Below, piece by piece: positions 62,078-62,854 of a DNA stretch of 64,000 bases (positions are counted from its first letter, which is position 1; each line of letters begins with the position of its first letter). The stretch is from the NCBI RefSeq assembly GCF_003018255.1, contig NZ_CP027440.1; one strand, given 5' to 3'. The notes under the pieces are model-generated. The model was given only the letters and a program-made list of their open reading frames with translations. It did not search any database and had not been told where the DNA came from. Origin of the DNA: Escherichia coli (lineage in GTDB: Bacteria > Pseudomonadota > Gammaproteobacteria > Enterobacterales > Enterobacteriaceae). The translations under genes were made by a program, and so were the position numbers.

Positions 62078-62854
62078 TTATTTTCCTGGTGATTCGGATG
62101 ATGCGTCATACATCGCGCATAAACACTCATCAATCATCCAGTCGTCTTCCCAGACCTGATAATGTGTGCCCTGTTCGGGCTGATTAAGCAGGTTCTCAAT
62201 CGCCTGCCGCGCACGTTCTTTCAGGATGAATTGATTGTTGAAGGCCCAGGCATTGATTTGGGCGGTAATGGCTTTATCGTCATCATCCTGCTCAAAACGA
62301 CTATTCTGAATATTCTCTTCCCTGTTATGCCACAGCAAACATGCCATCGATACTGTGGGTTGGTAACCGGGTACAGAGATGATGGCATCAAGCAATGGCG
62401 AAAGAGCGATATCGGCACGGGAAAACATTTCCAGCATATACTGTAATTCGACAGCCTCATCGCCAGATACCCAATCAGCCATATACTGGCAGGCAAATCG
62501 CTGCAATATTGCCCGTTCATCCTCACGCCAGTTTTCTTTACTGGCAAGGTTGATACGCCGTAGAGAAAATACTTCGTGAATATTGTCAAATTGCCCCTGC
62601 GCAACAAACTCCAGTAAACGAGGAAGAAAATAACGAACCTCATCGCTGTTTTGCGGATCAGGTCCTGGACTACTATTCCAGGCATTGATTAAGGAATAAG
62701 GAATCGCTCGCAACGATGTATTCCGTAATGCTTTTTGTTCCTGTTGACTCAGGCAATATTCACAACAAACCACAAATTGCTGCGGCACCGGATAACGACG
62801 AAAAATATGATAAACCTGCTCAATTAATGCCTGCATGGCGGAGCTGGGTTGCAT
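62078..62854 (-). CDS. Hypothetical acidic cytoplasmic protein (island gene 2), 258 aa
   Basis: Strong SD gagggggtaatt before ATG; Cys motifs CCEYC and CLC, DDDD acidic patch; no family recognised. Confidence 0.6.
   Translation of the reverse strand: MQPSSAMQALIEQVYHIFRRYPVPQQFVVCCEYCLSQQEQKALRNTSLRAIPYSLINAWNSSPGPDPQNSDEVRYFLPRLLEFVAQGQFDNIHEVFSLRRINLASKENWREDERAILQRFACQYMADWVSGDEAVELQYMLEMFSRADIALSPLLDAIISVPGYQPTVSMACLLWHNREENIQNSRFEQDDDDKAITAQINAWAFNNQFILKERARQAIENLLNQPEQGTHYQVWEDDWMIDECLCAMYDASSESPGK

Follow-up and report, generated by a model that had tools for sequence, protein, structure and literature searches.

What does the middle gene of a small, tightly coupled gene island beside glpD contribute to Escherichia coli, and which features of its product bear on the answer? 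In the window (the whole 64,000-nucleotide stretch of E. coli chromosomal DNA that was analysed), rtcB, rtcR, glpR, glpG, glpE and glpD are followed by a variable region in which this gene lies. A sequence-only reading had described its product as an acidic, soluble protein of 258 aa with cysteine motifs near both ends and a DDDD patch, and had proposed it as a partner or substrate of the Cys-cluster protein encoded immediately upstream (protein 1). Our preferred reading, tentative and with a probability of about 0.3, is that this protein (hereafter the target) is a metal-stabilised, non-catalytic helical adaptor for nucleic-acid-processing enzymes.

A genuine gene for an acidic, predicted all-helical protein

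The 258-aa open reading frame is present, on the minus strand, as are all three of the sequence motifs that had been noticed in its product. The features of the gene and its surroundings are as follows.

62078..62854, minus strand: target coding sequence, ATG to TAA, 258 aa; product predicted to be soluble, acidic and all-alpha, of an unnamed family
62753..62767, minus strand: CCEYC (aa 30-34), the Cys knuckle that defines the family, with CC-x2-C here against the family consensus C-x2-CC
62609..62635, minus strand: RYFLPRLLE (aa 74-82), the best-conserved family motif
62516..62530, minus strand: WREDE (aa 109-113), including the conserved W109 and E113
62276..62287, minus strand: DDDD patch (aa 190-193), allele-specific, in a variable loop
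62105..62131, minus strand: DECLCAMYD (aa 242-250), containing the C-terminal CxC, confined to the enterobacterial clade
62860..62866, minus strand: Shine-Dalgarno-like GAGGGGG, read from the sequence, within the end of protein 1 and 5 nt before the target ATG
62857..63567, minus strand: protein 1, 236 aa, the upstream coupled neighbour of the target, named 'YbbD family protein' in RefSeq
61470..62075, minus strand: protein 3, a 201-aa membrane protein by hydropathy, the downstream coupled neighbour of the target
61424..61448, no strand: G+C-rich hairpin with an 11-bp stem and 7 GC pairs, where the glpD and protein 3 genes converge
63741..64000, minus strand, running past the window: 3' end of a fimbrial gene, the last gene of auf, from the annotation of the identical locus L001 (14342-21497) and comparison with L029

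The tight coupling that had been claimed on both sides was confirmed, the target ATG (62852-62854) lying 2 nt from the protein 1 TAA (62857-62859) and the protein 3 ATG (62073-62075) 2 nt from the target stop (62078-62080). The description as acidic and soluble likewise stands, with a pI of 4.6, 37 aspartate and glutamate against 21 lysine and arginine residues, a GRAVY of -0.45, seven cysteines, and no 19-residue window of the target reaching TM-like hydropathy in a hydropathy scan. The AF2 model (pLDDT 88.9, pTM 0.89) is all-alpha, with 13 helices, and HEAT-like, and solved structures give no close fold. The product is an acidic and predicted cytosolic protein, modelled as an all-alpha HEAT-like solenoid, and HEAT/ARM/TOG-type alpha-solenoid adaptor proteins are among the closest known systems.

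Among E. coli alleles the dN/dS of the target is 0.20-0.29, falling to 0.07 against Pseudocitrobacter, compared with 0.03-0.05 for glpD. Because this ratio is low and the AF2 model is confident, the open reading frame is a genuine gene under selection and not a chance one. The E. coli alleles differ by up to about 15% of nucleotides, with a dS of 0.47 against 0.20 for glpD, suggesting that they are old or horizontally exchanged. The three island genes (61470-63567) have a GC content of 43-46%, against 55% in glpD.

The island as a truncated operon

In O111:H8 strain 8E, as in most E. coli, four minus-strand genes separated by short gaps lie between glgP and glpD, and encode, in order, a TM and PstS-like protein, protein 1, the target, as the third gene, and a TM-only paralog, protein 3. 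The first product, of 502-505 aa, joins an N-terminal multi-TM domain to a PstS-like periplasmic domain. In the strain of the window and in other ExPEC/APEC strains, the seven-gene auf chaperone-usher operon stands in place of this first gene; auf has been located at glpD..glgP, region GR24, in ExPEC (PMC12928451). The sequence-only reading had overlooked that the three genes of the island are a four-gene operon truncated by the loss of its first gene to auf. The hairpin at 61424-61448 likely marks the end of the operon, as a shared terminator.

Among 5426 complete E. coli genomes, protein 3 was found in 3648, the target in 3011 (55%) and protein 1 in 2340. The rtcB and rtcR genes (54750-57763) lie 4-7 kb from the target, beyond the glp genes. 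This proximity is not kept in Pseudocitrobacter or Salmonella, and in E. coli it is probably a coincidence.

A broad family with an N-terminal cysteine motif

We identified relatives of the target in 497 clusters at E<=1e-3, and in 71 at E<=1e-10, in an exhaustive search of 1.84 billion representatives. These are mostly stand-alone proteins of 240-270 aa, with alignments that span the query, and some members (P0119, P0164) are internally duplicated. A word-indexed protein search with the target matched almost only Escherichia and Shigella; a profile search of the word-indexed database with the 41-sequence alignment that defines the family (A1) yielded almost nothing new outside Escherichia, and a scan of genome contigs with the profile of the eight-member enterobacterial clade alignment (A2) recovered only Pseudocitrobacter, E. 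whittamii and Superficieibacter. Metagenomic relatives were retrieved by a YFLPR-type motif pattern (n=184). Eikenella, Moraxella, Capnocytophaga, S. sanguinis and myxobacteria are among the taxa of its patchy phyletic range. Foldseek additionally identified 140 structural relatives in AFDB50, distributed over many phyla and all uncharacterised.

The earlier statement that no domain is recognised was borne out in every library. In Pfam, the best match to the target was DUF4943 (E 0.044) and none of the 41 A1 members had a match at E<=0.001; NCBIfam and PADLOC returned no family for the target; and searches of PDB sequences with the target and the family profile gave nothing below E 0.06. One AFDB neighbour is labelled as a DUF1266 fragment, and we rejected this identity. 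DUF1266 proteins (YbeR and YbeU in E. coli) are of similar size and likewise all-alpha, but hhalign of the family alignment against YbeR and YbeU gave a probability of 0.2-0.3%. The remote homology search that had been suggested as a check uncovered a large set of relatives and no characterised family, and the family has no name or model in the libraries searched.

The conserved positions across 127 divergent members are as follows: Y15 (97%), F18 (98%), C30 and C34 (98% each), C33 (66%), E72 (80%), P78 (99%), R79 (96%), E82 (81%, with aspartate in a further 17%), W109 (81%, with phenylalanine in a further 15%) and E113 (94%), followed by W203 (91%). On this alignment, the family hallmark is an N-terminal Cys knuckle (C-x2-CC or C-x3-C) combined with YFLPRxLE and the W/E/W positions. 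The target gives a full-length match to the family profile, and carries all of the signature residues Y15, F18, C30, C34, P78, R79, E113 and W203, which are 91-99% conserved in the family.

Of the three features singled out by the sequence-only reading, only the N-terminal cysteine motif proved to belong to the family. Even the eight A2 members do not all keep the C-terminal CxC: C244 is serine in three and tyrosine in one, and C246 is substituted in two; within DECLCAMYD only L245 and A247 are invariant in this clade. A CxC cysteine is substituted in P0024, P0055, P0058, P0061 and the second L006 paralog, and the whole motif is missing in distant A1 members. The commonest E. coli allele has QDDID in place of DDDD, and the DDDD region is modelled with low confidence (mean pLDDT of 64 for residues 181-190). 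Judged by these alignments, the CxC is clade-specific and the DDDD allele-specific.

The CCEYC knuckle occupies a well-modelled loop that joins helices 1 and 2 in the AF2 model. About half of the members have histidines at columns 91-93 and 169. C33 and these two histidines co-vary, with all three present in 40 of the 127 members and both histidines commoner when C33 is present. The corresponding target residues are C30, C31, C34 and H93, with a serine at column 169. This pattern hints at a C3H/C2H2-type metal site in the family, which would be partly degenerate in the E. coli protein.

Distant members in RNA-repair contexts

We investigated the genomic contexts of distant members using 10 loci found by exact-protein look-up and 80 found by metagenome scan, which after ORF calling and de-replication at 60% identity gave 35 family clusters in 33 distinct loci. 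An all-against-all BLAST of the neighbours in these approximately 33 loci turned up no family that recurs, and a universal partner is therefore lacking. Most of the members stand alone, surrounded by housekeeping genes of unrelated kinds. Other members have coupled neighbours that are unrelated to one another, including FAD/NAD-binding, Ank/Kelch and DUF58 proteins and a LuxR/NB-ARC regulator.

Three contexts were more informative. In three related loci (L071, L072 and L076), a family member scoring E of about 1e-41 to 1e-44 with the family HMM is encoded between Hen1 (TIGR04074, 740 bits), whose stop it overlaps by 4 nt, and Pnkp (TIGR04075, 1434 bits), to which it leaves a gap of 10 nt. On the longest of these contigs (L071, 479-12539, soil metagenome contig Ga0224558_1002681), a repair cluster runs on one strand in the order band-7/HflK-like protein, RtcB, RtcA, Hen1, family member, Pnkp, RlaP, RlaP, CCA-adding enzyme and RNase T-like exonuclease. 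The L071 cluster is unusually complete.

At L074 (4095-5771), a 558-aa fusion protein joins a family domain (E 2.4e-40, family HMM) to RlaP (PF10127, E 1.1e-44), and fusions of this type occur on more than 80 metagenomic contigs. The fused RlaP domain is 52% identical to the RlaP of the L071 operon. RlaP has been shown to extend damaged 3' ends of RNA by one or two nucleotides (PMC12776372). Truncated copies of the L074 type are annotated just as 'nucleotidyltransferase' in Candidatus Segetimicrobium-type MAGs. Finally, at L077, a gene for a SpoU/TrmH-like 2'-O-methyltransferase overlaps the start of the member.

All three of these contexts point to RNA; they represent three of approximately 35 family clusters, two of them in one subclade, and their members are about 25-30% identical to the E. 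coli protein. Accessory proteins of RNA-repair operons (RtcB/RtcA, Pnkp/Hen1, RlaP) thus resemble the family in that distant members are fused to RlaP or lie between Hen1 and Pnkp, and differ in that most members are solitary and have no catalytic motif. The target itself lies outside such an operon, its neighbours being protein 1, protein 3, auf and glpD.

A tentative adaptor mechanism

In the reading that we prefer, that of a non-catalytic adaptor, the Cys knuckle and its variable histidine partners are predicted to bind a structural metal ion, which would hold the loop near the N-terminus against the helical solenoid. A nucleic-acid (RNA)-processing enzyme would then dock on this solenoid, or be recruited by it as an adaptor. 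The docked enzyme would be RlaP and the Pnkp/Hen1 machinery in some soil bacteria, and protein 1 in the Enterobacteriaceae. As clade- or allele-specific decorations, the C-terminal CxC and DDDD would lie outside this mechanism.

A more far-reaching version, which we regard as speculative and unlikely, is that the family is an unrecognised accessory subunit of bacterial RNA repair or RNA-end processing, a metal-stabilised helical adaptor that recruits or regulates RlaP and Pnkp/Hen1. Protein 1, with its degenerate deaminase fold, and the target would then form a new RNA-directed module for modification, repair or conflict, present in roughly half of E. coli strains and lacking in K-12.

Protein 1 as a facultative neighbour

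Protein 1 belongs to a narrow, enterobacterial family, and its predicted fold is nucleic-acid-deaminase-like, a fold common to deaminase toxins such as DddB. Neither the HxE/PCxxC zinc motifs nor any catalytic motif were found in it, and it has no Pfam domain and no toxin-delivery domain. The RefSeq label of this protein appears to be a misnomer. True YbbD_head (PF26610; L032 8702-9121, L027 6641-7131) is a small lipoprotein, of which the K-12 copy follows an orphan Rhs C-terminal fragment. We rejected the label as a link between protein 1 and Rhs immunity, as tblastn found no similarity between protein 1 and the K-12 ybbD region; a literature search on YbbD/Rhs returned nothing useful.

The proposed partnership of the target with protein 1 is supported by a recurrent, tightly spaced adjacency in three genera, Escherichia, Pseudocitrobacter and Superficieibacter, and fails as an obligate pairing, in that each gene also occurs alone. 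In an otherwise conserved copy of the operon in Salmonella, a 139-aa YbbD_head lipoprotein takes the place of the target and protein 3 behind the PstS-like gene and protein 1; an absence of this kind is what the sequence-only reading had named as its own refutation, and the strict partner model fails on it. E. coli H83 has protein 1 beside a truncated target. Conversely, target paralogs occur as a tandem pair without protein 1 at one enterobacterial metagenome locus. Thus, the linkage between protein 1 and the target is facultative, not obligatory, and the strict co-inheritance of a type II toxin-antitoxin pair was not found.

In approximately 730 E. coli genomes the target is present and protein 1 is reduced to 75 nt. 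We set this number aside as strong evidence against a partnership, since the sampled genomes share a single target allele, at about 88% identity, and they probably represent one deletion in one heavily sequenced clone. The intact target of this clone (L115, Ecol_542, 4995-5864) carries R79C, a change at a residue kept by 96% of the family, and has a dN/dS of 0.35 against the nearest allele, which together point weakly to decay of the target after the loss of protein 1. Ecol_542 also carries truncated rtcA and rtcR.

In Superficieibacter, a second protein 1 paralog adjoins not a target gene but one for a 935-aa SF1 helicase, which it overlaps (L014 5825-9263), and this too counts against an obligate pair. 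Paralog and helicase may form a defence-like pair in the same glpD-proximal spot. The core of this helicase resembles Mokosh MkoA/MkoC and IGHMBP2-type helicases.

Alternative readings

The alternative that best withstands these data, although we still think it unlikely, is that the target is an immunity or antidote protein that neutralises protein 1 or an incoming effector, with solitary copies as orphan immunity genes. Like polymorphic-toxin immunity proteins (SUKH, Imm), members of the family are small, soluble, patchily distributed and found as tandem paralogs or internal duplications, and one of them (L104) adjoins a SUKH-1 immunity-family gene. The target lies 2 nt downstream of a protein with the fold of a deaminase toxin, its alleles are divergent, with a dN/dS above that of glpD, and the corresponding position in Salmonella holds a YbbD_head lipoprotein, the K-12 counterpart of which lies behind an orphan Rhs C-terminal fragment. 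Unlike such immunity proteins, however, none of the 41 A1 members has a Pfam Imm/SUKH match, none of the approximately 33 distinct loci has a toxin-like or delivery-domain neighbour upstream or elsewhere, and protein 1 itself lacks a catalytic motif or delivery domain. Protein 1 also remains where the target is missing (Salmonella) or truncated (some E. coli), and is 55% identical to its Salmonella homolog while the downstream gene differs fully, which is not the pattern of cognate toxin-immunity pairs. Polar residues are strongly conserved across the family, PADLOC is empty, and a tblastn search of plasmids and phages found no family member, its one weak match (24.5% identity) being an E. coli chromosome filed as a plasmid.

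Rather less probable is that the target works on the cytoplasmic face of a membrane module for signalling or transport, as a relay or regulator; the core of this module would be the TM-anchored PstS-like phosphate-binding protein and its TM-only paralog, protein 3. E. coli commonly has the four genes closely spaced in one operon, and the PstS-like gene, protein 1 and the target co-occur in Pseudocitrobacter too. Protein 3 moreover shares homology with the TM domain of the PstS-like protein (hhalign, A4 vs A5, probability 95.6%, E 1.3e-8, 159 columns), which suggests an integrated membrane complex. Against this, auf-carrying strains lack the PstS-like gene and yet keep the other three genes intact, Salmonella, which has the PstS-like gene and protein 1, lacks both the target and protein 3, and distant members have no PBP or TM neighbours in the approximately 33 loci.

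We consider it improbable that the target acts in redox or metal handling, with its cysteine pairs as substrates or partners of the protein 1 Cys cluster, as the sequence-only reading had it. The target does have seven cysteines in 258 aa, with C30 and C34 nearly invariant, and protein 1 in the strain of the window does have a C-x4-C-x2-C-x2-C cluster (C189, C194, C197 and C200). However, the positions of this cluster are non-cysteine in P0251 and in the second Superficieibacter copy, and its loop has a pLDDT below 50; in the target, the C-terminal CxC is unconserved, and just two cysteines are family-wide, too few for an Fe-S cluster. A structure search found no thioredoxin-like or other redox fold for the target. 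With neither the protein 1 cluster nor the target CxC and DDDD conserved, the cysteine-based argument for a partnership is weak.

Equally improbable is that the target is a decaying remnant, unexpressed in the strain of the window since the auf insertion removed the first gene, and perhaps the promoter of the operon with it: E. coli and Shigella have many copies that are truncated, frameshifted or fused (P0019-P0052), an IS1 deletion has removed the target in L031, little more than half of complete genomes retain it, K-12 has lost all but yzgL, an N-terminal stub of the PstS-like gene (L028 3725-4006; full gene L029 5497-7014) on which a literature search returned nothing useful, and a promoter scan upstream of protein 1 gave nothing above chance, but the reading frame is intact in the window and in every listed auf-carrying strain, all family-signature residues are kept, comparison with the auf-type allele in L030 gives a dN/dS of 0.29, still a sign of constraint, and read-through from auf or an unrecognised promoter could express it.

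Significance

The interest of this locus lies in a family-level lead towards RNA repair and in an unstudied four-gene operon, while the window gene itself shows nothing surprising. The target is present in E. coli lineages that include ExPEC and EHEC, and is absent from K-12, and has therefore escaped all classical genetics; its family comprises at least approximately 500 sequence clusters without a Pfam or NCBIfam model. Should the RNA-repair contexts not reflect its function, the target would be one more conserved hypothetical protein, and the gain would be a corrected view of which of its motifs matter. If the RlaP fusion and the operon in which a member stands between Hen1 and Pnkp do reflect function, the family would be a new component of bacterial RNA repair, a process whose accessory factors are poorly understood, and would also open a way into the function of the four-gene E. 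coli operon.
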